Notes: generated by a model from the sequence alone, not told the origin. A DNA stretch of 64,000 bases from Blasia pusilla (GCA_050084515.1 CM114271.1:26722001-26786000), one strand, 5' to 3'. Numbered from the stretch's first letter, positions 9,785 through 54,387 are shown. Made by a program: numbers and translations.

Positions 9785-10137
9785 TGGAGAAATATATTTA
9801 TATATTTATATATTTATATAGAAAAAGGATGGGAAACCCATCACGATACAAAAGAGGGGGCATGGAGACCCAAAAAATAGACCTCAAGAGGCCAGAACCG
9901 GCCCCGAGGAGAAAGAAGGGGGCCTTCCCCCTAACGACCAAAATCACCAACAGCAGAGACAATATCAACAACATCTGGAGAACTATGACTACTACTTAGT
10001 GGGCCTCTAGCATTGGCGTCTCCAACTGCTTGAGCCCGCCAAAGAAGCCCATTTGCCTGGGCGCGCTGCAAAGCTATGGAGACCCGTTGCCTACAATAAA
10101 GTATCGCAGTGGCTAAGGACAACCCATTTCTCGACCA
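9785..10137 (+). repeat. Dispersed direct repeat, copy 2 (homologous to ~1685-1995)
   Basis: Same blocks as copy 1 with roughly one mismatch in four or five bases (estimated by eye). Confidence 0.8.
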
Positions 10138-11204
10138 AGGTGGAAGGAAGGAGGAAGGAGTGAGGTGGAGTGATGGAAGGAAGGTGTGAGTCGCGGGTGG
10201 AGGAGGAAGGGAGAACGGCCGGATAAGGATGCTGGCCAGGCCCCTCCCCCGGGAGGTTTGTCCCGCATAGGAGCACGGGCCAGCCTTCCCAAACCCCGCA
10301 TTTAAAATAGCCTTGGTAGGATGCAACGTAATTAGAGGAGCGGACGTAGTATCCACGAGACGGGGTTAGGATCGGGCCAAGGTAATGCTGGAGTACATGG
10401 TAGGAGCCTTGACGTGGTTGAGCAGCTAAATGGTCACGTTGAACGTGGTTGGGAAGTTGACATGGCAGCAGGGATTTTGGTGGAAGCGGTGTTCGAGCGA
10501 AAGCAGTATTTATGACGCAAGTGTACGTGTCGATGTTGATTGCGAGCGGGATGGGTGATCTGCGTCGAGAGGTTGGGATGGAGTGTTGTGATGGAAACAC
10601 ATGTGTCGATGCCGACGGGTAGTTTGCATCTGTTGACGAGAGGTTTGACGTGTTGGTCGAGGAGAGTGTCGTGTTGCGGAGGTTGCCACACCACATGGAC
10701 GAGTGTGTGTTGACGGTGCAGTAGATTGATCGCGGGCATGTTCAGGTTACCCATTCGAGTCCTTTTTCCCGCACTTATCTTGTGTGATTGAGAGTGTTGG
10801 GTATCGGGTCGTTGTTGGTGTTAGATGGGTGTAGCGATGGTGACGAGTGTAGTCTCCATGCATGTGTAGCATGTTTGTGGATATACGGCGGTTTCTGATT
10901 AGGGGTCGCGTGTATGACCCTAGAGTGTCAGGAGTTTAGGTGAGTTAGTTGGGAGGCTTGAGTGTTGAGTGTGCGTGAGGCCGGGTGTGTCATCATGGGA
11001 TTGGCATTAGCGTAGGTGAGCTAGTGAGGAGTGTGAGAGACTCTTGGTGAGTCTGAGTGCTTGAGCGGGTGAGAGAGGGTTGTCATCACGGCGTTCTTCC
11101 AATGTTCCAAAGAATGGGGTAGTACGAGTAGTGGTAGTGGAGTAACACGGAGTGGTGTGAGGTATTGAGGGGCTTCGAGTAAGGAACCACCCGGACTCCC
11201 ATCC

Positions 11205-14200
11205 ATGGTTGGATCATCATCACTAGATAGCGAGTCTCGTGACGAGATCTCGGAAGGGGACAGTGATGCGTGGAGAGAGATGGACGACATGGGCCACCAA
11301 GGCATGCGTCATTTCTCTGGTGCGGTAGGCACCAAAAATGATTTCATCCAAGAGTTTGACACGTGGCGCGACTTCCAGGAGATACGGACCCCTACGTATA
11401 CGCAGTTCAACCCTTTTATGGCGTGGAAGGGGTTGTTCCAGCACTTGGAGGGTCCGTTGATGGATGACTACATGGAGTTCCGATCTCTATACTCTGTAGA
11501 GATCGATGCTTGGAGGGCATATTGGGCCCCAGGGTATGTGTCTACTATTCATCGCCAAGCGTATGATGGAATAGTAAGGATGGAGAGACCTACACCATCA
11601 GCCCGGGGACTAGATGGAGAGGATGGTAGTGAGAGTAGTGAGGTGGCAGAGACCTCTCGTGGTAGAGGACCACCAAGTTTCAGTCCTACAATGGAGTGCT
11701 TCCGATAGTTGGGGAGGAGCTACCAGGGCGTGCGGATCGACAAGCTGAAGATTCTATAGGATTTTCAATAGAGATCGGGTGAGAGTGTGAGGGAGGCATT
11801 CACACGCATGCAACGATTGATCGTTGCTACATATGGGGTGATTGAGGCGCAGCCAGTGCAGTATTGGTATGGAGTATTGGACGAGGAGCTATTGAGGAGA
11901 GTTTGGGATGCAATGTTGCTTCACACAGCGAAGCCCACATTGAAGGTGGTCTTTGAGTTGTCTGAGCGGGTAGAGCTCAACATGAGTGAGGAGCACGTGG
12001 TGACCACAGGATTTTCGCAGGATTTGACGGGTCGACGAGTAGGAGTAGACCCAAAAATATCCTAATATGCACTAGTACTACGGGAGTAAGCTGGTGGGCC
12101 CAGAGAGCATGGCGGTTTTCGTGAGCCGATTAGGCAACCGCCCGTACAAACATATGTTTCCCAGTAGGGACCCTGGTTGGGTTGTTGGACGTGTGGTGGA
12201 TCACATAGGCAAAGAGACTACCCACAACATGGGAGAGGGCCACGGGCGCCTCCGATTGCTCAGGAGCCATAGAGATTGGCCCCACCATAGTTCTAGTGTG
12301 ATCATTGTTACCAATATGGTCACACTAGGGATAGGTGTTATGAGCTTCGCCGGGAAGTACGCCCAGAGGTAGGCAGAGGACTTGGGGGCGAGAGAGTTGG
12401 TGGAGATTGAGTAGTGGATGATCGTGGTGGTAGAGTGCCATCACCAGTTACCGGAGATGGAGGACGTGCACCCGATGCAGCGCTCCTTATGCGCATCGAT
12501 CAGTTGGAGCAAAGGATTTCTGCCATGGCGATGATGCAGCTACATGCTGGCCTGGAACTGAGAGTAGCTAGTGTGGTGCCAGCCTCCACATCTTACCACG
12601 ATGTTGGTGAGGATTCTGCGGGAAAGGGATTTATGTGTAGTGCGGCTCAGGTTGAGGCTACTGTGGTGGTGACTCCGGGTGATGCAAGAGTAACTAAGCC
12701 ATCGAGAGGTGGGGTTGAGATTGACCCAGAGGAGGGGACCGATGGGCGGCAAGCCAGGGTTCCCCAATCGTTCACGTTGTCGGAGGCACTTCATACACCG
12801 TCGATGGTGTCTCAACAACTAGTAGTGCCCACGTGTGAGGCAGATGCATCGACGTCACGAGGAGTTGGAGATACGACTCCTATGCCGGCTCGGGAGGAGC
12901 TAGTGTTGACCACCTTGTTGGATATGGCCACAAGGTTGAGCCAGGCTCTGTTGTTTTCCGCCATAGAGTTGGCGACGTTGGAGTTGGACCAACGGAAGTG
13001 TTTCGGCTGGCCGCCACATTGTGTTAGCGTGGAGAGGTGACTGCCTCTCGTTCAGAGGTAGTTGAGGAGACGATGGAATTGCCCTCGGAGCAGGTGCTCA
13101 TGACGTCCTCCACTGAGTCATGGCATGCGGCGTCGGAAAAGTTGGTAGATATGCCAGCTAGCCCAACGATAGAGCGAGCCATGATCACACCACATGTGGT
13201 GTTGTTGGATAATCGAGTAGGAGTTTTTCGCTTGGTTAGTCCCACATGTGCAGTGTACCACCAACAGCGTGTCCTACTTGATTCGGGAGTGCAGCCCTTG
13301 ATGTTAGGGAAGATGGCATATTTGGCGTTGGGTCTACACAAAGGCGACACTGAGCATTGTCCCTTTTGCATACATACCTCTATTGGGGGCATATCATCCA
13401 TGCAGTACATGACTCGATAGGAGTTGATGGACGGGTGAGCTATCTACCGGTGTTGTTTGCAGAGAGTAGTGGTGGTCGACACGTGAGGATACGGTGACCA
13501 CGTTGGCAGTATTCACAGGTGGTGTTAGCTGATAAGGAGGGTTCGGGGAGAGGAGCACACATGCGGAGGACATTCCCATAGCGAATAGTCCCACGGAAAG
13601 ATATGTCAGGGTGGGTGTCTCTTCCCATGGTGCAAATTTGCTTTATTGTTGTTGGGGATGAGCATTGAGATGTGTGGAGTGCAGACGAGCTCATGAGGCT
13701 GGGGTAGAGCCGTGTCTATGTTTGGAGCAGGGTACGAGAGTATTAGATCTTTTCGGAGGGATCAACACGGCGGATTGCTATAGTGTTGCAGGGATGGCGA
13801 CATCGAGGGTGATGGATGTGCATAGGATAGTAGATCATGTCAGATACATATGTGTATGCTATCTAGAGTTAGGGGGACCAAACTGCCAATTAGGGGGGCG
13901 ATTGTGGAGTCTCGATGTATATGCATGAGTTTGTTTGGTTTGTATGGATCTACCTGTATGTTGGGGAAGATCGATGTTTTGTGGTGTGTAGATGTGACCA
14001 GCGATGTGGGTTGTATAGCGATGTGTATGCGCACAACAAGTATCACATCTTATTTCGACGTAGGTAGAGTTCTATCACGTCGACGACATAGAGAGTTAGC
14101 GGGTTGTTTGGGTGTAACTTCATCCTGAGATATCGGATGAGGTTGGCGAGAGGTCTGTTGTGTCGGGAACGTCGTTTATGGCAATTCTCTATTTTGGTTT

Positions 14201-14612: not shown

Positions 14613-17001
14613 TCTTTGTATGTACTTGTTCTCGCGTGCTCAGCGAGCGTAGATGATGAGGATATAAAAAAACTCGAGTGGAGGACTTGTTGGGCAAGTC
14701 CGTGATATGGATCAATACGTCTGTTTTTGTGAAACCTTGCTATGGAGACAGTACACACTTGAGGAGACTTAACCCAATTAGAGCTCGGAAATTTCTTGGC
14801 TACCTATAGAACTAGTAATTGGTTGAATCCTTGGGACTCAACTAGTTGCGAGTTCTATAGGTAGAATGTGTTGCCCTAACTTGCCTAGTTTACTTCTCTA
14901 TTAGATTTCTAAATATTTCAAAAATTCCAAATACTACTATACTTTACTTGGCTTTCACAAAGTATACCCCTATGTATCTAGAGAAGTAATCAATATGGGC
15001 AGCATAGGCAACCCATATGTAGACCAATCAAAATGAAATCTTAGCTTGTTAGGAGTATTAGAGAAAGTACCAAAATTTAGAGTAGGATTGGATCCCTAAG
15101 AAATCCACAAGAAGAGAATTCTATGAACATTATTCTTTATGTTTGGATACCTATGTATAACAAAAAAACCGAAACATATCAATTGTTATGATATATAATA
15201 TTAAGAAGGAAGAACATTTAAATGATTGGATCAATTGGTCTATCCAACTCAAGGATCTGGTTGGAAGAAACACCATGTATTCATGATTCCTTTTAATTCG
15301 GTTTCTTAGCGAATGCTTCGATTCTCTTGACTCAATTTCGTATCAGTTTACGCATGTATGGACTAAATATTCTTTTTTCCTGCAAACATATTAAGCCTTG
15401 CGAATCCAAACCATACTTATATTTTATTTTCCTTTTGGTTGGTTTAAGAAATTCTTCTTGTGGTATGTTAGGTTCAACCAACATTTCACTAAGGATCATG
15501 CTTGAAAATGATTGGATATATGCTATTATTAGTCCATATGGAAAAAATAATAGTCAAATATAGCATTGCAACTTGTACAACATAATATATATATATATAT
15601 ATAGAGCAAGTAGAAACTTGGGGTTGTGACGGTTGAGTAGGTGGTTATATTAGAGCAACCTCCAAACGAATATGGTAAGAATACATCATAATAGAGAACC
15701 AAATAATCCAATCATTTAAATTCATGGATAGGAAAGAATTAATATTTCAATGAGAAGTGCATAGTTATCTGTTCATAATAAATAGATTTCTTGGTTGACC
15801 TTTGTTTGCACCTTCAGGAGATATTCTTAAAAACAAGAAGAAAAAAATGATGCAAATTATGGTGTTAAATAGCACGGACGAAAAGCCGAATACGCGAGTG
15901 CAAGGGCAAGATAAAAAAAAATTTCCAGTGGCCATGCAGGCACGCAAAACACGTAATTTTAACAATGATTTTATAAATATTAATTGAGCATTCATATTTT
16001 AATGGAAAAATGTATTTTTTGCTATTTTCAAGAATGGATTCACTAGTTTTTCAAGAGTCTTCTTAAGGTAAAGATTTGCAGATTTCAAATCTTTTTCATG
16101 ATAGCTAAATATAAATGTACTACTTAAGGTTCTAATGTGGAATTTGGGATGCAAAGATGTGACCGTAATTCATTTCAATAGTGGGAGTATAGCCCTTTTT
16201 TTACATGTGTTGCACAAATATGCAAGTTATATACACATAACTCAAATGGTTAAAAAAATTCTTAACCATCTTCTCAGATTTACTCTCAAAATCGTAACAT
16301 ATGCCACATCCATTGCGAATATATTTATGATTAAAAGATCATCCTAGAATTTTCCAACTCTAAATTTAATATCCTTCCATGACTAAAGAGGATATCAACT
16401 CTAAATTTAATATCCTAATGCTAAAGAGAATATTTTCTAGAAACAGCTAATGCATTTAATGTCCTCAAATTTCATTGTTGTGACCACTTTATCATCACAT
16501 TGCCTTTGGAACATGGGAGTTGAACCATTATAATTGTAATTGCTTCATTGTAATGGCATATATAGTTGCAAAGTATCATTATCCACCATGGATTTTGAAC
16601 TAACATTGATAGTGATAATAATCTTATGACGCAACAACTATGAGACAAAGCAAGTGGAATATGATGTCATTTGGTGTGCACATGCGTAACATGCACTAAC
16701 ATCTAAAGCATAGTAGGTACATACACCATCACATCAAAAGGTTATAGAATCAACCTACCACAAGCGATTTTCCTATTACAATTGTCTTCAATTTCCAGAT
16801 GATAAGGTAATTCCAATTTCAAAAGCATAACCTTTAAATTAAAGGAAGATCACTCCTTCCTTACTAAATTCTTAAATGTGTACACATATCAACAAGCATC
16901 CATTTTAAAAACATAATGACTTCCTCATCAACATGTCGATATACATATGATTTTAAGTGCTTTCTTCCATACTAATATCAACATACTCACCAAAATTTTG
17001 G

Positions 17002-20000
17002 TCACTTCTTTAGGGCTACCAACATTGAAATAGCCCCCAACAGATTTACAATTCCAATCTGGACAATGGTAACAAGCACATTAGATTCACGAAACCTCCA
17101 TATGTCACCAAAGCATCTGAATTCAAGAGTATACGCCATAAACTTTGATGGTCCTCCTAAGTAGTTGATTGGGGGCACCTTTTGAATCAAGTTTGCTTAT
17201 AACTACATAGAGTTGTGCCATGGATAGCTATAAAGGGAAAGTTCATATGAGGAATGCAACACACAGATTTGGCAATGGATTGTTGCAAAGTGTGGCACAT
17301 GATTCGAGAAGCATTTCGTTAACAATTCAATTTATATTTTGAAGAATTTATATAGACTTTCCAATCCACCAATGGCTATGAAGATGTGGGACTAGGCACA
17401 AGAGCAATGCAAAAACTGAAAACAATTCGTTGCATTATAGTTCCTAAGAAATATATTTACGAGAGATTGTTCCTAAGAGATCAAATATCCATATTCAATT
17501 AAACTACCGAAGCAATTATGGACGAAGAATACAAAAAAACTATTTACCCTCAATCCCTCTTGACCAATGTATCAAAGGCATTCAATTTCTACCGACTCAG
17601 TTCTTGTGGAGTCAAAAATATTGTTTGAATGATAAAGACAATAAAACCACTTATCTATATTATTACGAGAGGGCACTATCTTGATTTGTTAACTCCGGGA
17701 ATGACACACGTTTATTTTCAATGAGAAAAATAAAGCACAAGAATGTTTCAAATTTGTAAAATCACTCTTTATTATCTATGAAACTTTTAGTAATATGCTC
17801 TTTTCACTACATTGGACCCATTGAACGTAAGGGCTTTTTGGTAAAGTAGTAAAAGTGGTTAGAAGATACCAATCTGGCTTGAATAACATTAACTTCCATC
17901 CAACCTTCAACCCCACTAAGTTTAGCTACTCTTTTTTTGCCCATACAATGCATTAAACAATATATGTTCATTTTCGTCCCTTCCTAGAGAGAGGCAAGAC
18001 CACTTCAAACTATATAACTGAATTCTCTGCGAGGGAATTTCCCTTCCCTCTTGAGAGAATGGAGGGTTGTTGCATTTACCTCCCTTTGCCTTTCTAATTG
18101 ATTCTTATTCCCTCCTCTCTTTATGTCATCTTTGGTAATTCCTTCCTTACGTCTCATATCGCCATTAGGAGGACAATGATAAGCTTCCTCCCCTTCTACT
18201 ATCTAATCTCATATCCCCTCCCCTAATTATATTTTATTCTTCATCTTTCCACCCCTATCTTATCGAAACTTGATACTTCCTCAAAAGTCCCTTATGTAGT
18301 TGTCCATCTTACATACATATTACATTCTCTTTTCTCCTCCCCTACAAAAAATTTCAGCTTAAAGGTCCTTCTCCAATAGCAAAGTCTTAATTAGAAGAAA
18401 TTACCACAGCAAATAATAGCATTTGAAAACAAGAACCCATTGATCTTGTTTTCCTTAATTGGCAATATTGATGATAACATAAAAGAAGATTACATGTGCT
18501 TGAAGTGAATTTTGAAAATTCACTACTTTATACCCAAGGTTTAGTTGCATCGTATGGTTGCAAAAAAAATGGACAAATCTATTCTTACGACAAGTTTGAA
18601 CATATTCACGGACATGGATTATAAGAAGTGGGACCCACACTTTATAATTCATGATCGAAAATAGGATCTCACATGGAAAAGTCTTTCCGAGTTTCCTAAA
18701 ATAAAGAGGGAGGTTATCAGAATGGAGGGAGGAAGAAACGACAAAGCATGGAACATGTAAGTGCACCCTTGTTATATCCTAGTTCTTGTAAAAGTTAAAG
18801 AGTATCTTCTAACACCCTTTCGAATTTCTAATCATTGCTTGCTAACAATCTATGACCCTACTATTGCTTAAATCCATTACAACAATCATTAGTTCTGGTT
18901 CTCTATTTCCACTCCCGATTCAACTTTCGCATGCCGGATCCGATGGGCCATGGTCACGTTCGAAGTCCTTATCACATCGGATAGGACGGCCTAATAGCAA
19001 CGCCAAGAATTTGCGGCCAACTTCGGTCTATTACAACTAAGTCACAAACTTACGACTTTTAGATCTACCTCCCATAGAAGTTCTATTGGGGTCACTTGAA
19101 AATACATTCCGGGTGGAACAACCAATTGTTTGCCATCTCCACCTTTAGGTCACCTACCTACTTACCTAACTGAAAATTGAATGTTTGGTTGCTTACGGAT
19201 TTATATCATGCACAAAAGGTTTGCAACCGCTCGAGGATGCAAAACCTCTCTTACGCCCATTTTTTTTGGACAGTTGAAATCTCGCAACCTTGTGGTTAAA
19301 TGGCAACCATAACCACCTTCAACTCATCCTTACCCATAGGATCCAAACTGATTTGCTAACGGCCAACATCAATGTTTTGCGTTGGCCCATGGGAGACGAC
19401 ACTAGGAGTTGGGCCCCATGGACGGCTGCAAAGGTTGCCACGACCTAGCGCATATGGCACCGGGCCCTAAGAGCCATGTTGCATGAACCACCAACCAAAA
19501 TGTTTTACCAACAGACTACGGAAAAAATTTATGTCAATTACTCATAGTTTTTGACGATTACTTGCCGCTCGAGGTCGGGAGGATACCGGACAATTTCTAC
19601 ACCCAAAACTTTTGAGCGCAGAAAAAAAAAAGTAACGCTGTAAGATCACCACAACCTACGGAACCCGGCCCTAAGTCTTGACTTAGAGTCGCAAAAATAG
19701 TACTTTTGGACTAAGTCATTTGAGTTTGGGTACGGTTTAGGAATTTGTGAAATCATGGAGATCTTTGGATTGTAATGCGATTTAGGAATCTCTCTCATCA
19801 TGAAGGTTATGATCGGAGCACCTTTCCCCAAAGTCTTTGTTGATGATTTCATGGGTCTCCATCTCAATATTCCCATGAAGCCAACATTGGCAACTACAAC
19901 CTCGAGACTCTTCTTTGGTTCAATCATGGGGCGGTAAGACTTCTTCCTAGGGACCAAAGTTCAGGAAGAGATAGGAATATGCAAGAATGTTTGAGTGTTG

Positions 20001-23000
20001 TCTTTTCTATCAGGAGACTCTTTCTTTAATTCAACTAGTAAGATGCCCGCACGATGCACGGGAAATTAAAAAAGTGTTTCAAGAGTTAGTGTATAACCCC
20101 TGAAGGGAAAAGATTAATGATGATGCTCACAAACTCGAATTTCTTTCGGTAATTGGGCAACTTTTACATCTGCACCTTGTATCAAAAGGTGCAGGTGTAA
20201 AAGTTGCCCAATTACCGAATGAAAAGAAATTCGAATTTGTGCGATTCGAGTTGTAAAAGTTGCCCAATTAACTTTTACACCTGCACCTTGTATGTACGTG
20301 GAAAGGACATGAAAGAGAGATGAATCAAAAGTAGATGAGGAGAGAAGCACTTACAATTAGAAGAGGAGGAGGGACTGCACCCACCGACACCAATCCGGAG
20401 AAGCTCAAGAAGAGAAACTGCGACACAATATAGCTACCAGGTTACTTGCATTCACACTGGAAGCAATCAAACAAACTGTCTTGTAACTATATTCCCACAT
20501 GAAGCCCCTGATGAGGCTGATCATTTGACCCTTCTGAGCATTGACCTCTTGTCAAACCAATTTGTTGTGTATATTCACCATCTCTTTTGAACTTCTTACT
20601 CTATCTTGCATTGAGACACAATCACCTGGTCGCCTAAGATTTATAATTTGTTCCTGAGTACACTGAGATAAATCTCGCTTGATCAGCTAAGAAACTGTGA
20701 TCAGCCTCATCAAGAGCAAATAACTTCTGCTTTAGACGTCTACACTTGTACCTCAATTCTGTGTGCCATAGAACAACTTAGTTCTCTCCATACATACTGC
20801 CGTTCTCAAAAACTCTACCCTACCCCATTACCTGTTGGATCCTCAATGAGTTTTACATGTTCAACTATGTAATTATGAGCAGGCAATCTGATGTAACTAT
20901 CTTAAGGTATCCGAGTTTGGTCTCTTTTTGTGATCAGATGGAGGGTTTATTACAGAATCAATTTGCAAAGACGCAAACAAAATTCAGACGTAGTTTACAG
21001 CAAATCAGAATTCTTCAGTCATTCCCTGGCCGGGGAAAATCTCCCTGGTGATTTAGTCCCACTTCTGCTCCACCCTCAGAGCTTCTAGCTTGGACCGGTG
21101 CATGTCTTTTGCTTAAGAATGCTACAAACGTTTAACCAGGCCGCGCACCAACTTTTCAAATTCAACCCTTGATTAGAGACTTAGCGTGGACTTCCCTGAA
21201 CGATTTCAGGGAGACTGTCTGACTGAACGCTTTCATGTCCTATACGAACTTAGTTCATATTGCTAAGTTTTTGCATGAGTACAGCAGAATATGTAGCTTA
21301 CTTATTACACCACTGGCTTCTATTGGTGTAACTGTCCAAGGCTTGCAGGATCTGGTTCACCTAAGTTAAGTTTGAGTCCAATAGCCCTGTTGGGTCCCTG
21401 AGAACAAGAAATCAGCTTTAGCATTCTCTCTGGTTTTTGTTTGCTATCCTGGAATTACATTCCTTACCTTCACTTCTTGTCTAGTGAGTCTACTTCTTAT
21501 CTACAAGATTACTCGTGTATCCAGAATATCCTTGGAAAGAAAAATATGAAAATAAACGATTTTCACTAACAAGGTCAATACCAAATGAAACTGAAGCGAT
21601 CAATCGATCATCCTGGTACCTAAGACACATGGGAAAGAGAGAGAACAGTAAAAGGAGGAAGTTGCAGAACATACAATTCGTCCGACCACAGTAGAGTAGT
21701 AGAAAGCTTGAGCTCCTTGGATACCTCTCATATCGCCGACTGCAGTGCCAATGTAGTACACTCCAAATACCTGGAAACCAGCAGTGTCTGTAAAAAGAGG
21801 AACTGAAACATCTCCCAAGAGGTACACAGTTACTGCACTTGTCACATCCAAAGGTACTCATGCACATACTTAGATAGGCATTCTCCCCACGAGAGTGCCA
21901 GAAAGAATAAGAGGAAACAAATTTTCTTGCTGGAAGTTTTAGCATACCATAGCAAGAACTGCTCCCACCTGAACCCACCCCAGACTTACTCCATTCAGAT
22001 TAAACAGGATCCCTGAAATCAATTCCACGGCCGGAGGCTTCAGATTTAAAGGCGCGGAAGGTCCTTGCTATTATGATCCAGCCATCAACATCAGCGAATC
22101 TTAATTGGTGCTCTGCGACCAGGCAAGACGATCATCGCAGCCCAAAGTGATCACAGTCAGAGCTTCACTGGTCCTTACGAGAGCACTCCGTGTGCCGAAA
22201 CTTACCATGCTCACAAATACTTCAGATAGACTGAAACAACTTAGAAACCCACTGAAGATTGAAATCACTGCCAATGTCTCTCCACACCGATTCGTGAGGA
22301 CTTATCCAAAGTGTCACAATCAACAAACCAAACAGCTTTCATGAGGACCAGCATTTCTATGCTCCAGGACATGGACTTCCTCCCTGCACATCAAACTCTC
22401 TCAAGTCCTCGTCTTCGAGATGAAGCCTTTCGAAGTTGTCAGTGACCAATAACTTCTAAAGGTTTGCCCTCCTTACCAAATAAAGACTTCGGAAAGGTGA
22501 TAAGTGCCAAGCCAGCAATTGATATGTAGAGGCCAGTGACGAGTGCAACTCGAGCGGGCTTTGTATTCTTTAGACCTTCGTTTTGGCGACTTGGATCTCT
22601 CTGAAGCGCCTCTGCCAGGTCCATACTTTCCAGGCAAGTCTCTGTTTTGCGAGGCATCATTTCATCCGAGATGTTGGTTTCCTCGACTGCTGAACGAAAG
22701 CTACCTTGCGTCACAAAACAAGGCTGATGCATGAGTACACATGAATTCTGGGGTGAACAGAAACGTATTGAGAACAATCTACCGAACCTGCTACTCCAGC
22801 TAGCATCCACAAAATAGCATGAACATTTTCTCTGTCTCACAGGCATCCATAATTTGAAGACTCTTACATCAAGCTGCCAACTTCTGAGAGCAGAGCTATT
22901 TGAGGAGAGTGACTTCCATAAGTCCTCGGCATCGATGCGGCTCTATTACTGATGCGAATTTCTCCGTGCTCCAGTCTTGAAGCGAACACTTTCGCAGTAA

Positions 23001-23927
23001 GATTTCCTGCTCTGCCTGCGTGGACGTTCCCTTGAAGCTTGCCCAAGACTACAACATCCCCATCAGCTGACACAGAGCCTCCTTTCTTCACATCTCCAAG
23101 GATCTGCATACAGAGTTCTGTTAAAATTTTTGGCATAACTTGGAACAGCCTGGATATCGTTGAAAGATTATTCCCACCTGTACACCCCCGAGTCTACGAT
23201 GCTCATTCGGACGTAATAGTAGAATCGCTGAGATCTGTCTCCGGAAATGTCGCAAGAGTTCAGGACTCCAAAAGTATGTCTCGTGCTCTCCCAACTCTTC
23301 ACAAGATTTCAGTGGTGCAACATATTATGTGAAACTCTCGAGAGGAAAATTGCGCAGACTATTGAAATAAGGCAGCAACTGTCCCTCAGGACCTCATCTC
23401 CAAACCCATCAGCTTGGACCAGTCTTCGATAAAGATTAGATTGACCTTACAATCACTGCACCGGAGTGCTCCACAATCTCCCCCTCGCAAATTGACTTCT
23501 TCACATACAAGCAGGCACATTTCGCCTCATGTGCCTCCCCCGTGTCTCCCTCAACTTCAACTGCTTCACTACTTCGATTCTCTTCATTGTTTTCCGCCAA
23601 GCTGGCTGCGTCGGTGGCATATCCTCTGCAAGCACGCATGGTCTGCCTTCGATGTCCCGAATAAATCGTGCAACTAGCCGAATTGCTCTGCACCCCTTTC
23701 CTATCTACCCCTTTCCTAAGCAACATCATCGCTGTTGCATTCCGCTCATACCCGCTCCGATTATATCCTCCTTTTCCCTTATCTTTCTCCCAAATGTAAC
23801 CGGAAGTACAGAGCTTTCCCAGAGTTCGTATGGCTGCACAATGACCTGATTTTGAGGAGCTCGCACGAATCTCCAAGCTCAGCTTCGTCTTATTCAGGAA
23901 ATCCACATAACAAGCCATTGCATGCAT
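17002..23927 (-). CDS. MinC C-terminal-domain protein with C-terminal multi-pass membrane domain, ~405 aa, 7 exons: 23927-23451, 23103-22868, 22700-22477, 22012-21948, 21770-21675, 20417-20355, 17058-17002
   Basis: All introns GT-AG with consistent phases (0,2,1,0,0,0); total 1218 nt. Splicing exons 1-2 gives LYVKKSICEGEIVEHSGAVIILGDVKKGGSVSADGDVVVLGKLQGNVHAGRAGNLTAKVFASRLEHGEIRIS, which matches the MinC_C beta-helix pattern. The C-terminus has several hydrophobic segments and ends IGIVNLLGAISMLVALKK. The exon-3 acceptor and the start codon (23927 vs 23918) are less certain. Confidence 0.8.
17654..17680 (+). mobile_element. Helitron-like 5' terminus (also at 49145)
   Basis: A|TCTATATTATTACGAGAGGGCAC here and A|TCTATATTATTATTAGAGAGTGCCC at 49145, both of the A|TC-tatatta Helitron start type. 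Confidence 0.45.
19471..19671. mobile_element. Harbinger/Tourist-like MITE, diverged copy inside last intron of the MinC-like gene
   Basis: Right end ACCCGGCCC+TAA; left TAA+GAGCCATGTTGCATG (decayed TIR). Internal CACCCAAAACTTTTGAGCGCAGAAAA is shared with the copies at 29.1 and 40.1 kb. Another ...CCGGGCCC+TAA end abuts at 19467. Confidence 0.6.
20034..20062 (-). mobile_element. Helitron-like 3' terminus
   Basis: Minus strand reads CCCGTGCATCGTGCGGG (hairpin) then CATCTTA and CTAG|T. Confidence 0.6.
20128..20241. repeat. Long inverted repeat (hairpin) in intron 6 of the MinC-like gene
   Basis: 34-bp arm TTCGGTAATTGGGCAACTTTTACATCTGCACCTT pairs with AAGGTGCAGGTGTAAAAGTTGCCCAATTACCGAA (1 mismatch) around a 7-nt loop. 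A further ~17 bp of stem lies beyond a bulge. Partial extra copies run to ~20293. Confidence 0.9.
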
Positions 23928-24342
23928 CGACTCACTAGAGTAGAAATCCGGCTATGGTGATTCAAACTCCATTTCCAGTCATAAACCCAAGCGCGGATTT
24001 GCCCAGGGGTGCCTGTTAAACCCTAACACGATAAAGCTCTGTTCAGACACGTTCAGGCAAAGCAACGCCTTCGCGACTTTATCGGTCACTCAGTCCTGGC
24101 CAGCCTAGCTCTCGATTTGGCAGTACGCATCCGAATAGGAGGGAGGAAGGCGTCTCTGCTGCCATGACCCACAATTGAGGCACTGTGATAAGAAAAGCAA
24201 GGCTGGAAGGAGAAACGCGTACTAGTACTCCTGTGAGATACTGAGAAGCGGAAGGAAAGCGCAGGGCTCCGTCTTCCGTGTGAGAAGGGAAAGCACGCGC
24301 TCACAATCGGAAGAGAATCCCAGAGGGAGCAAGCCTGCAGCC
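23928..24342. promoter_or_regulatory. Probable bidirectional promoter between MinC-like gene and ERG28
   Basis: Divergent start codons ~415 bp apart; telo-box AAACCCTAA at ~24018. Confidence 0.55.
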
Positions 24343-27262
24343 ATGAGGGCGCTCGGAGTATGGCTGATCGTGGTTGGACTGGTGCGTCTGTCCTCTGTAT
24401 GGTTCGGATTCTTTGACATTTGGGCGCTGCGTATGGCCGTGTTCTCGAAAACGACCAGTAAGTGCTCGCCTCGCTCTCGTTGCTGTGAGAGTCAAACCTA
24501 TGAGAATGCTGCATTGGAGGACGAGAGTGAGGAGAATGGTATGAATGTGGGCTCAATCCAAGTGACTGGGAATATGGAACTCTCCCTCTCCATACATTTG
24601 GCTGACGTGCTAAGAAGTTCATTTCGCTTGCTTTAACAGCCAGCATTGACAGGCAAGATCCTCCATGATACGACGATTCTAGTGGTCGTGCCCCTTTCCT
24701 TGGGCTAAGTTTTTAGGTGGTTGAATTACTGCTCCACATTGTCAATATTGCGATTGACCCAATTGATTGTCACCCTCCGGCGACTCTAAACACCTATCCC
24801 TATGCGTACTAAGTTTATGAGCTTGAGAGTTGCTCCAACAGTCAGCATTGGCAGGCGGGATCCGCCAGGAAATGACGATTCTCGTGTTAGTGTTCCTTTT
24901 CTTGCGCTAAGCGTTTTTAGGTGTTTAAGCTGTCAAAATGGAGTTACTTCCCCACATTGTCAATCTTGTGATGACCGAATCGATTTGGTCACCCTCTTTT
25001 GACTCTCCACAGCTATCCCTGTGCGTACTGTGATTACGAGCTTCAGAGTTGCTTCCACAGTGAGCTTTGGAAGGCGTGATCCCCCCGGGAATGACGATTC
25101 TAGTGGTGCTTTTCCTTTCCTTGGGCTAAGCTATCAAAATGGAGTCGCTTCCCTACATTGTCAATATTATGATTGACCGAACTGCTTTTGTCACCCTCTT
25201 TCGACTCTCTACAGCTATCCCTATGCGCACTGTGATCACTAGCTTGAGTGTTGCATCAACAATCAGCATTTGCAGGCGGGATCTCCTTGGAAATGACGAT
25301 TGCAGTGCTAATGTTCCTTTCTTTGGGTCAAAAGCTCAGATGAAGTTCCTTCCTCACAGATCTCCTGTCATTGTGGTCGACAGAATTGATTTTGTTACAT
25401 GTGTTGGGTCGTAAAGGTTGCAACTAATCGACAGGTATCCACACGCTTACTGCTTATCTATTTCTTCCCTTGCGAGCGTACGCATAATATCAACTCGTCA
25501 ACTATCGGTTACAGCTTTTCTTATGCTGGAACAACCTTTCCTCGACATGTGAACATTCCTCTTTCTCTGACTTCGTCTATAGAGACCCTCCAGATGTACG
25601 AGTAGTAGGGGCATGGCCTATTCAGGATCTATTCATTGAGCAGTCTGGAGATTTAGCACTCTTTTTCCCAGATTTCCTCACGAGTCTATACCAAAACGAT
25701 GTTAACCAATAGTTATCATGCACATTTTATTTGCAGAACACTTGTGTATATGTGGGCGAAGATACGTGTATGTCAGATGTAAGGCAAACAAACTGTTTGT
25801 ACAACTAACCAAATCATTCAGGAGCCCTAAAGGGAGGACAACTCCACACGGTTGCTGGTATAGCTGGAATCTTTCTTCTTTTCTTCCCTGGATTTTTGTA
25901 AGAATGAATTTGACTTCTGTAGGGTTTTATTTTCATCCAGCTCTCCTCTCTGGCAGATACATGCGTCTTCCTGTGTCTGACTTCCGATCAGACAATCTTT
26001 TATTGTTCTTTTATAATTCAAGAACACATGCATAATATTTCCCTGCTAAGCGAGTCTTGAAGCGGCCAGCTATCGTCACTCAGACTGGTGATTATAATTC
26101 TAACTCCAACATACCTGCTAAAATCATGGGTACCTTATTACTGTCAATCGCGTGATGAAGAGCATCCTGGAAGAAACACCGTTTATTTCCCTTGTTCAAT
26201 GGCAAACGGGCTGGAGTTCATTCAGCTATGAAGGAGGGAATTCCCCTCTGGGGAAGCACATGGTATTGAACTCATGAAAGTGCAAGGATCTTGCTCTAGC
26301 TCAGCCACAATGGACTATCTTGTATAGTCTGGGAGAGAGGTGGGTACGAACTAAAACAGGATGCCAGCCAGACCTGCATGAAAATACGCATCACTCTGCG
26401 GATGGATGCCCACAGATGACTGGTACTCTGAGAGAGAGTATGCTGAAGTGTATGACCTTAATGAATGTTGGCTGTTCTCCCAAGTTCAAGGTTGGAATTC
26501 GGGGGTTTTTTGTAAACAAAAGGAAAATATCCATTCATGCAGTGTACCAGTTCACATGCTAAGAAAGTAGAAATTTGCTTGTTAAGGTGTTTATGGATAC
26601 AACTCCAGGGTGCGCACGGGGCTGAGGGGGGCTAATATAAGCCAGTCAGCTTCCCACAGGCTAGAAAATATTTCTTTCTGTCAAGCTCTTATTAAAAATC
26701 CCAAGTTTTTGGTCTGGGTCTTAACATTGCACCCCTCATGATATTTATTTCAGGTTTTATGTAATTTCTGGTGTGGAATAACCATGTTTGTGGGCATCTA
26801 CAGTGACAGAAATACACGGGAGGACATTTGGAACGTGGACCCTTCTCACTTGTACTCTGTGCATTATTTGTGCCAACAACCTGGAAAACAAGCCTTTATA
26901 CTTGGCCACATTGCTCTCATTTGTGTATGCCGTTGGACACTTCGCTATGGAAGTTTTCATCTACAAGACCATGGCTCTGAAAAATCTAGCCACCGTGGGG
27001 TTATTTGCAGGTGCCTGGTCAACTTCATCTTCTTTGCCTTTTGCACTCTGAATATCTTCTGAGATCATTTAGTAGCATCAGCAAGGGTGAAAAAATATTC
27101 CTTGGATGAGAGATGTTAGTCACAATTTCGAATCATTGCTGAAATGTCATTCAATGGAGGTGAGCTGATGACAGTTTCGGCTGTGACACAGGGCCATCAA
27201 TTGTCTGGATGCTCTTAGAGTGGAGAAAGTTCAACGAAGTGAAGGCTGCGAAGCAAGTTTGA
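24343..27262 (+). CDS. ERG28: Ergosterol biosynthetic protein 28 (sterol C4-demethylation scaffold), 130 aa; exons 24343-24457, 26804-27010, 27192-27262
   Basis: MRALGVWLIVVGLVRLSSVWFGFFDIWALRMAVFSKTT-M-TEIHGRTFGTWTLLTCTLC...LENKPLYLATLLSFVYAVGHF...AGPSIVWMLLEW matches plant ERG28. GT-AG introns, phases consistent. Confidence 0.95.
24642..25400 (+). repeat. ~210-bp diverged tandem repeat, ~3.5-4 units, in ERG28 intron 1
   Basis: Block GCATTGGCAGGCGGGATC...GACGATT...CCTTT.CTTGGGCTAAG recurs at ~24642, 24846, 25064 and 25266. CACATTGTCAAT...TGACC...GTCACCCTC...CTATCCCT recurs in between. Confidence 0.85.
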
Positions 27263-52662: not shown

Positions 52663-52779
52663 TGCAATAGCCGATCTCATATCGTCGTCGTTAGGTCGGT
52701 CTGTCCTCCACTCGAATTCGAAAAATTTTCTTCACGCCTGGAATTGGAGACGCCTTGGCGTACGCCCTAAACGCTCTCG

Positions 52780-54387
52780 ATGGACTCCGAAGATGAAATG
52801 CAGGATGCTTGGGATGGAACATCGGACGGGGACTTCTACGATAGGAACGAAGAGGACGACGAGGCGAGTGAGAATACCATGGGCAGTGATGATGACGATG
52901 ACGAGCCGGACTACGGTTTCGATGATTCCGTAACCGATGACGTTAATGTGAGTTCTAGGCTTCCGCAGTCCAATTATACGATTCTCAGTGAGAGGGACAT
53001 TCGCCAGCGACAAGAAGAAGCGGTGACCACAATCACAAATTTCCTTTCCCTGTCGAGGACTGAAGCTGGGATTCTCCTGCGATACTTCAAGTGGAGTGTC
53101 AGCAAAGTGAATGATGAGTGGTTTGCAGATGAAGAGCGCGTGCGACGAAGTGTAGGTCTAGTTTCAACACCGGCAGATCGCAGGAAGTTTCAGCCTTCGG
53201 AGCTCACATGTGGAATCTGCTTTGATAGACAGCCTCTTGAGAGAATGAGGGCGCCAGCGTGCGGCCACTACTTCTGCGACGTCTGTTGGACAGGATATAT
53301 ACACACCGCAATCAACGACGGGCCGGGCTGCCTTACCCTGCACTGTGCTGACCCATCATGTGGTGCTGCTATCGGTGAGGACATGGTCCTGTCCTTGGTT
53401 TGTAATGAAGATCGGGGGAAGTATACTCAATATCTGCTGAGATCCTACGTAGAGGACAACAGAAAGGCAAAGTGGTGCCCGGCACCAGGTTGTGATTATG
53501 CGGTGGAATTTGTTCCTGGAGTAGGTTCATACGACATTACTTGCAAGTGCTCATTCAACTTCTGCTGGAACTGCCTGGAAGAGGCACACCGTCCTGTCGA
53601 TTGTGATACGGTTGGGAAGTGGATTCGGAAGAACAGTGCAGAGTCAGAGAACATGAATTGGATTCTAGCAAATTCCAAACCTTGTCCAAAGTGCAAACGC
53701 CCAATTGAGAAAAATCAAGGTTGTATGCATATCACATGTACTCCTCCCTGTAAATATGAGTTTTGCTGGCTATGTCTTGGCGCTTGGACAGACCACGGTG
53801 AGAGAACCGGAGGATTCTATGCGTGCAACCGTTATGAAATTGCAAAGCAGGAGGGTGTTTATGATGAAGCAGAACGTCGACGAGAGATGGCTAAGAATTC
53901 CCTGGAACGGTATACTCATTATTATGAACGGTGGGCCACAAACGAGTCCTCAAGGGCGAAAGCACTTTCTGATCTCCAACAAATGCAGGCTGTCCACATT
54001 GAGAAGCTCAGTGACAAGCAATGCCAACCTGTATCTCAGCTCAAATTCGTGACAGAAGCCTGGCTCCAGATTGTGGAGTGTCGCCGAGTTCTGAAATGGA
54101 CATATGCATATGGCTACTACCTTCCTGAGAATGAACAAGCCAAGCGACAGTTTTTCGAGTATTTACAGGGGGATGCAGAGGCTGGACTGGAAAGACTCCA
54201 TCAATGTGCAGAGAAGGATTTACAGGGTTTCCTTGAAGGGGATGTTCCTCAAAACAAGTTCAATGATTTCCGCACCAAACTAGCAGGGTTGACTAGTGTG
54301 ACAAGAGCATACTTTGAGAATCTGGTCCGAGCCTTGGAAAATGGACTCGCAGATGTTGACATATCCAGGGGGAGTCGACAAAGGTAG
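52780..54387 (+). CDS. ARI: ARIADNE-family RBR E3 ubiquitin ligase (ARI7/ARI8-like), 535 aa, intronless
   Basis: Acidic N-terminus; RING1 CGICFD...[10 protein letters not shown]...CADPSC; IBR WCPAPGC...[22 protein letters not shown]2 [31 protein letters not shown]; Ariadne domain [12 protein letters not shown]...[13 protein letters not shown]. Confidence 0.95.

Follow-up and report, generated by a model that had tools for sequence, protein, structure and literature searches.

The locus at positions 17002-23927 (minus strand) of a 64,000 nt stretch of the Blasia pusilla genome (GCA_050084515.1, CM114271.1:26722001-26786000), referred to here as the window, raises the question of whether a land plant has kept a MinC protein and what such a protein would do when fused to a membrane domain of its own. 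According to a passage of a 2026 review, plants lost MinC and its role was taken over by ARC3 (PMC13650779). An initial annotation of the window had proposed a spliced nuclear gene encoding a MinC-type domain followed by hydrophobic segments, interpreted as a relic of the cyanobacterial Min system. The locus was therefore compared with public RNA data, protein libraries and structure predictions, and it was found to be an expressed, seven-exon, nuclear gene that is an orthologue of the 'MinC-like' proteins of the green lineage.

The pieces of the open reading frame (ORF) on the minus strand were first shown by a stop-to-stop scan. When joined, the coding sequence is 1218 nt long (405 codons), with the frame open from the ATG at 23927, which is just preceded by an in-frame stop, to the TGA at 17002. 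Four public runs from the same organism were mapped over 16000-25000. Two of these (X2 and X3) are sets of assembled contigs presumed to derive from RNA, and two (X16 and X17) are raw stranded RNA-seq, from which ~6% and ~12% of the reads, respectively, were used; paired read counts below refer to the two raw runs. The first mate mapped to the plus strand for all reads of the gene in X16 and X17, indicating RNA of the minus strand, and every listed junction has GT..AG ends on that strand (CT..AC on the plus strand). A junction of this type was seen in the RNA at each of the proposed introns, and the proposed limits of the seven-exon model over 6.9 kb, and its last two introns of 1.3 kb and 3.3 kb, proved exact, which bears out the description of a spliced nuclear gene.

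The coding part of exon 1 (23451-23927; codons 1-159) encodes a variable, disordered presequence and linker together with the first strands of the MinC_C domain, and an X2 contig covering 23481-23996 shows that the 5' untranslated region (UTR) reaches at least 23996. Intron 1 (23104-23450; 347 nt), found in an X2 contig and one read, separates this exon from exon 2 (22868-23103), which encodes the core of the MinC_C beta-helix. Intron 2 (22701-22867; 167 nt) is represented in X2 and X3 contigs and in 6+0 reads, and exon 3 (22477-22700), placed by contigs and alignment, supplies the last MinC_C strand, a variable linker and, from ~22561, membrane helix 1. The productive form of intron 3 (22013-22476; 464 nt) was found in an X2 contig only, at a depth of 2.3, and exon 4 (21948-22012; 65 nt), which encodes a loop and the start of helix 2, is colinear with the orthologues and has gapless junctions.

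Beyond intron 4 (21771-21947; 177 nt; X3 contig and 1+7 reads) lies exon 5 (21675-21770), which encodes helices 2 and 3 and, as judged from its invariant columns, the most conserved stretch of the family. Intron 5 (20418-21674; 1257 nt; X3 contig and 1+8 reads) is followed by exon 6 (20355-20417; 63 nt), which was placed by RNA and alignment and encodes the end of helix 3 and a loop. After intron 6 (17059-20354; 3296 nt; X2 contig and 2+10 reads), the coding part of exon 7 (17002-17058) encodes helix 4 and ends with the TGA; it is covered by an X2 contig (16916-17058), and the 3' UTR thus continues to at least 16916. Exons 1, 2 and 3 are joined by X2 contig 5, exons 2, 3 and 4 by X3 contig 11, and exons 4, 5, 6 and 7 are chained by junction reads. 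With exons 2 and 3 spanned by contigs and exons 4 to 7 linked by reads, a single gene encodes both the MinC and the membrane part.

Two in-frame differences among accessions lie in exon 1, namely a deletion of 15 nt (at 23692) and an insertion of 6 nt (at 23803), and a further 7-nt insertion at 23991 lies in the 5' UTR, upstream of the ATG. That the indels in exon 1 are multiples of three would point to purifying selection. In exon 6, a C>A difference at 20391 was carried by 4 of 10 X17 reads; it changes a Leu codon at its third base and would give Phe in helix 3.

The identity of the first domain was examined by profile searches. Pfam MinC_C (PF03775) was found on the ORF at 22864-23193 that includes exon 2 (E value 1.5e-16; 60.7 bits against a cut-off of 33.2), at profile positions 20-92 of 102, and alignment assigned its opening part to the final ~21 codons of exon 1. 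As the opening strands are in exon 1 and the core is in exon 2, MinC_C is complete only after splicing, as had been proposed. The same domain was found in all six homologues searched with Pfam (42.8-84 bits), with no other family above threshold. FapA scored 13.9 bits on the exon-2 ORF and 12.5-21.4 bits overall, below its cut-off of 31 and always under MinC_C, and was rejected; bactofilin was likewise rejected, as it had no match in the Pfam searches of the window ORFs or of the six homologues. No other beta-helix family therefore outscored MinC_C.

The fold was examined in an AlphaFold2 model of the orthologue from Calypogeia, built from a 12-row alignment, in which a beta-helix at residues 131-235 (pLDDT, the predicted local distance difference test, >90) is followed by a disordered linker at 239-265. 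A Foldseek search of the PDB with the orthologue model returned MinC C-domains at ranks 1 to 9, whereas rank 10 had an E value of 0.034. The best match was Aquifex MinC (4V02_D; E value 4.9e-11), with a template modelling (TM) score of 0.83 by target and a root-mean-square deviation (rmsd) of 0.8-1.1 A (1.1 A over 105 columns). The beta-helix structure expected of a MinC C-domain was thus recovered in the orthologue.

The description of the protein as lacking MinC_N also held, as Pfam found no MinC_N in any of the six homologues and no family on the exon-1 ORF. Residues 1-130 of the orthologue are disordered in the AlphaFold2 model (pLDDT <50). The NCBIfam MinC equivalogs match the orthologues over their C-terminal halves only, and four orthologues scored far below the cut-offs of both the best model, NF001778 (54.6-89.3 bits; cut-off 315), and TIGR01222 (48.5-70.2 bits; cut-off 95.25). 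The 405-aa Blasia product is therefore laid out as a disordered N-terminal region of ~130-135 residues, a beta-helix at ~137-241, a variable linker and a four-helix membrane domain.

The last of these had been described as about four or five hydrophobic segments. Both sequence and models gave four and not five; in the Calypogeia model the membrane helices fused after MinC_C are at 269-299, 307-332, 337-361 and 368-389 (pLDDT 75-95), and the domain modelled alone had a pLDDT of 83 and a predicted TM score of 0.70. The membrane domain belongs to no Pfam family in the six homologues, and Foldseek gave no match at E<=0.001 (best E value 0.33). The best Z score from VIA was 10.4, to prenyl synthases, which is within the range common for unrelated helical bundles, and feature matches of 0.88-0.90 to bacterial hypothetical proteins in the ESM Atlas are leads only. 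A search with the membrane domain on its own found two transcript-derived sequences of 140 and 150 aa, which are probably fragments. In a scan of prokaryote genomes, with a single peptide pattern for the membrane domain, no match extended past residue 270 of orthologue P0002.

Conservation within the family is highest in the membrane domain, where most of the invariant columns lie, among them an Arg that closes the conserved stretch of helix 3. Across 15 sequences, 64 Lys and Arg residues are in the N-terminal flank, the loop between helices 2 and 3 and the C-terminal tail, versus 14 in the loops between helices 1 and 2 and helices 3 and 4, and by the positive-inside rule the MinC_C domain and both ends would therefore be on the same, inner side.

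Prediction with two copies of residues 125-396 of the orthologue supports the formation of a dimer, with a score of 0.64 against 0.00 for the best control. Of 30 proteins whose solved structure is a pair of one chain, 20 attained the mark used, compared with 1 of 23 solved as single chains. Contact agreement between runs was at least 80%, and the pLDDT of the partner at least 73. The predicted interface is made up of one face of the beta-helix and helices 2 and 3, with the lowest-error contacts on residues invariant in the family. As MinC_C dimers have already been solved, that half of the result may simply reflect known structures; for the membrane half, no relative has been solved.

Relatives of the protein were identified by several searches. 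A HMMER search with exon 2 against 1.84 billion representatives gave 1053 matches at E<=1e-3, the best of them in the middle of proteins of 392-396 aa, and one protein search with exon 2 against longer proteins returned no homologue. With the Riccia fluitans protein as query, 13 relatives were found at E<=1e-3 among 7998 scored candidates. These relatives are from Riccia sorocarpa, Marchantia paleacea, Marchantia polymorpha, Calypogeia fissa, Ceratodon purpureus, Klebsormidium nitens and Mesotaenium endlicherianum and from unnamed transcript assemblies, and a Closterium protein was found in addition. A cluster of 94 'MinC C-terminal domain-containing' proteins in the ESM Atlas is 75% eukaryotic, most often from Chlorophyta, and the membrane domain recurs in its models (TM 0.81). 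The family has so far been seen in green plants and algae only, and no vascular-plant member was present among the best 150 library matches, in searches limited by shared words and length.

The 405-aa product aligned end-to-end and colinearly with 12 full-length members, with 31-48% identity over 321-372 aligned positions and no alignment gap at any exon junction. The identity to the Calypogeia protein was 48%. The N-terminal ~130 residues can barely be aligned across the family. By contrast, conservation is high in the membrane domain, of which a long stretch is identical to the Riccia protein. The Blasia protein falls inside the liverwort group of the family tree (support 90/88), and its nearest relatives are thus liverwort proteins, in agreement with its assignment as a land-plant gene.

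The origin of the domain was traced by a scan of prokaryotes with one genome per species, which gave 343 relatives, all matching within residues 74-270 of orthologue P0002. The best 80 were kept, and include 35 from Cyanobacteriota, 40 from Chloroflexota and 5 unnamed. Among these best 80 of 343, the seven best matches are cyanobacterial. In a quick tree of 133 rows the green family forms one clade (SH-aLRT, the Shimodaira-Hasegawa-like approximate likelihood ratio test, 89), and one node joins the green, the cyanobacterial and the Chloroflexota-plus-others clades. The same three-way picture was obtained from a tree of 55 rows, made up of 13 green sequences plus random draws of 14 from each of three sets (35 cyanobacterial, 40 Chloroflexota and 40 unnamed rows), with support of 93/89 for the green and 71/86 for the cyanobacterial clade; the alignment used for the trees has 110 columns only. 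Descent of the family from cyanobacteria is compatible with these results. The idea of a relic of the cyanobacterial Min system finds some backing in the seven best matches, but the trees, which give a three-way split, do not bear it out.

A further tie to the Min system was sought in the conserved RSGQ motif of MinC, which two papers describe as the point of contact with MinD helix 7 and as crucial to the binding (PMC6803595, PMC5548801). Alignment to Aquifex MinC 4V02 via the orthologue placed CEGE at this position in the Blasia protein (codons 147-150; 23478-23489, minus strand). In the 80 named bacterial loci, R is present in 80, S in 79 and G in 80, and 79 have all three together; the fourth residue is Q or R in Chloroflexota and mostly V or M in cyanobacteria. 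Among the other library matches listed, 141 in number, 127 cover the motif, with R in 122, S in 113 and G in 127. None of the 12 aligned green-family members retains R-S-G; Klebsormidium has RGGQ and two algal transcripts have RSST, and the residues of other relatives include HNGE, GDAE and CDGE. As RSG(Q) is lost in the family, a defining Min-system feature of MinC is missing from it. A built-in anchor may have relaxed the need for recruitment by MinD.

MinC-like sequences had been said to occur in algae and moss, and earlier mentions were indeed found. A 'MinC-like sequence' in a moss genome is mentioned in one paper (PMC2995336), another puts forward a MinC-like gene as a possible substitute for the ARC3 that Physcomitrium lacks (PMC10030945), a table lists a Chlamydomonas MinC accession (PMC4641359), and MinC is reported in Cyanophora (PMC4015805). 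Orthologues are also annotated in public records, for example by NCBI as 'septum site-determining protein MinC [Marchantia polymorpha]'. As orthologues are annotated and the moss and Chlamydomonas MinC-like genes appear in reviews, the gene is less new than was implied, and it belongs to a known family without a characterised function. For the moss gene, Yang et al. 2008 and Osteryoung & Pyke 2014 are reportedly the works that others cite. In the literature searched, which excludes the primary papers on the moss gene, plant or green-algal MinC was not the subject of any functional study, and neither the membrane fusion nor the loss of the motif was described, though the primary papers may describe the architecture. 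The present analysis adds the architecture shared across the family, a predicted dimer on the side of the stroma, the absence of the MinD motif and the heavy non-productive or alternative splicing at the locus.

The green MinC-like proteins from M. polymorpha, Riccia fluitans (R1flu_019560) and Ceratodon purpureus (M758_2G131800), of 356-427 aa, have the same architecture as the Blasia protein, as does the Klebsormidium nitens 'protein with septum formation inhibitor MinC domain', and differ from it by species-level divergence only. Since RNA was mapped at the Blasia locus alone, the long introns and the alternative splicing are known only there. Like bacterial MinC (1HF2, 4V02, 5XDM, 6RIQ), the Blasia protein has a C-terminal beta-helix fold, and it may, as predicted for the orthologue, dimerise via one face of it. 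However, it lacks MinC_N and RSG(Q), and its orthologues are below the NCBIfam cut-offs. It also has a predicted membrane domain of its own, unlike bacterial MinC, a soluble protein that depends on MinD for recruitment. A nuclear, spliced gene and a long presequence are further differences from the bacterial protein. ARC3, a Z-ring inhibitor of plants that is regarded as standing in for MinC and that reviews describe as an FtsZ-like protein with MORN repeats, has no sequence relation to it, as Pfam searches of the window ORFs and of the six homologues found MinC_C only; the two could nevertheless do the same job, namely the negative regulation of plastid FtsZ assembly.

On balance, it is somewhat probable that the protein is a dimer in a plastid membrane, with MinC_C in the stroma acting on the FtsZ ring and its own anchor replacing recruitment by MinD. 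The N-terminus would be a putative plastid transit peptide, and the dimer would most likely reside in the inner envelope, where the two termini and the paired MinC_C domains would face the stroma. The beta-helix would act on the FtsZ ring in the manner of bacterial MinC_C, which dimerises and binds FtsZ filaments or the FtsZ tail, and the protein may thus have a role in plastid division. A membrane anchor that stands in for MinD would be consistent with the fact that neither the FtsZ-attacking N-domain nor RSG(Q) has been kept.

Several observations weigh against this interpretation. Most junction reads in X16 and X17 use non-productive, frame-breaking sites. At intron 3, all 11 raw reads (5+6) and the X3 contig take an acceptor at 22112, which adds 100 nt and leads to an in-frame TAA (22001-22003) and a 349-aa product with helix 1 only, and the productive junction (acceptor 22012) was found in 0 of 11 raw reads. 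At intron 2, where tandem AG acceptors 4 nt apart are present (22701-22706, minus strand), 5 of 11 reads (3+2) use the upstream one, which starts exon 3 at 22704. This form stops right after the beta-helix, giving 238 aa with MinC_C and no membrane domain, and would be either a soluble MinC_C-only product or a target of RNA decay. At intron 1, 5 of 6 reads (4+1) use a donor at 23178, leaving an intron of 74 nt (23104-23177), and in the event of read-through from exon 1, translation would end after 163 aa. A minor alternative exon starting at 21397 in intron 5 was seen in 3 reads. As frame-breaking sites dominate, most of the RNA from the locus in X16 and X17 would not encode the full protein. 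The depth is also only ~1-7 over the MinC-like gene versus ~28 over the neighbouring gene, and reads are present across its introns as well.

Other points on the same side concern the protein. Loss of RSG(Q) removes the best-known tie to the Min system and so speaks against a classical Min role, and the trees do not nest the family within the cyanobacteria. The candidate transit peptide is judged from the composition of the first 60 residues (10 Lys and Arg, 4 Asp and Glu), the structure and dimer models are of the Calypogeia and moss orthologues rather than of the Blasia protein itself, and the literature searched contained no reports of localisation, binding or phenotype. Set against the splicing data, the full-length frame is supported by the junctions of the X2 contigs, which carry the productive form at introns 1, 2, 3 and 6, by the gapless alignment with orthologues and by the in-frame indels among accessions.

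A related interpretation, offered tentatively, is that MinC was rebuilt in green plants as a self-anchoring, MinD-independent dimer, for example a fixed binder of the FtsZ tail at the envelope. As the N-domain and the MinD-docking motif have been dropped, such a protein would work without MinD, and the tandem acceptor of intron 2 may serve as a switch between the anchored form and a soluble form with MinC_C only. It is also conceivable, though doubtful, that the membrane domain is the working part, as a small transporter, a scaffold or a protein for lipid handling, with MinC_C merely dimerising and no link to FtsZ or division. The concentration of conserved and invariant positions, the invariant Arg among them, in this domain would suit such a role, as would its provision of the lowest-error contacts in the predicted dimer, the lost docking motif and the absence of MinC_N. 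However, no recognisable transporter or enzyme relative was found by Foldseek, VIA or Pfam, and the beta-helix is well kept, as its small deviation from Aquifex MinC indicates.

The splicing data could also mean that the gene is decaying or mostly non-productive in this species, with mis-spliced or decaying RNA and little protein. The frame-breaking reads at introns 3, 2 and 1, the low depth and the reads across introns are what would be expected in this case, but it is unlikely given that the 405-codon frame is open, the junctions are gapless relative to the orthologues, a membrane stretch is identical to that of Riccia, the accession indels keep the frame and the X2 contigs are productive at four introns. 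Action in another compartment, such as mitochondria or the endomembrane system, rather than in plastids is a still less probable explanation. Green plants are not known to have mitochondrial FtsZ or MinD. The best matches of the family are cyanobacterial and Chloroflexota MinCs, and the members seen so far are green only. A passage of one paper predicts that MinC and MinD are mitochondrial in some eukaryotes, but places these proteins with non-cyanobacterial bacteria (PMC3499364). That the MinC and membrane exons are two genes wrongly joined, which would undo the fusion altogether, is hardly credible; it is refuted by X2 contig 5, X3 contig 11 and the chained reads of exons 4 to 7, and the same fusion recurs in the 12 full-length orthologues and in the 94-member chlorophyte cluster.

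The long introns were also examined. The longer one had been called rich in transposable elements, but this was not borne out, as no Pfam family was found on 12 ORFs of introns 5 and 6, or in a search with the ORFs at 18455-18778, 19646-19960 and 20114-20350, and the intron sequence is not repeated elsewhere within the window. The sole repeat is an inverted repeat of 39 nt (20140-20224; 95% complementary, 7-nt spacer) near the 5' end of intron 6, which has the look of a small hairpin element. RNA reads of the same strand map to parts of intron 6 (17806-19310), six molecules end at 18216 in X17, and reads and contigs differ from the window at several bases within 18716-19083; they may stem from RNA that was not spliced, from a transcript of the intron itself or from a dispersed repeat. 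No Rfam family was found over 15000-26000.

A gene on the plus strand (23974-24457 and 26804-26833; depth ~28) lies head to head with the MinC-like gene, and its splice junction joins 24457 to the start of an exon at 26804. The 5' ends of the two genes are less than ~100 bp apart, which suggests that they share a bidirectional promoter. The first coding exon of the neighbour (24343-24457) has a weak likeness to Erg28 (E value 0.019; 15.7 bits, below the cut-off of 22.2). Elsewhere in the window, a single ORF of 538 aa (52771-54387, plus strand) encodes an Ariadne-type RBR E3 ubiquitin ligase (IBR 78.5, Ariadne 44.9 and UBA_ARI1 28.4 bits), and a G+C-rich block at 10001-14000 (0.52-0.53) with a strong positive GC skew (0.25-0.32) contains ORFs of 179-216 aa that match no Pfam family.

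Bryophytes and green algae thus keep a conserved MinC derivative that has a built-in anchor and has lost the canonical contact with MinD. Should it act on plastid FtsZ, it would fill a gap in the machinery that places the plastid division site in non-vascular plants, and would be a natural experiment in which MinD-dependent recruitment was swapped for direct anchoring. As orthologues are present in Marchantia and Physcomitrium, where good genetics is available, the question is directly testable.

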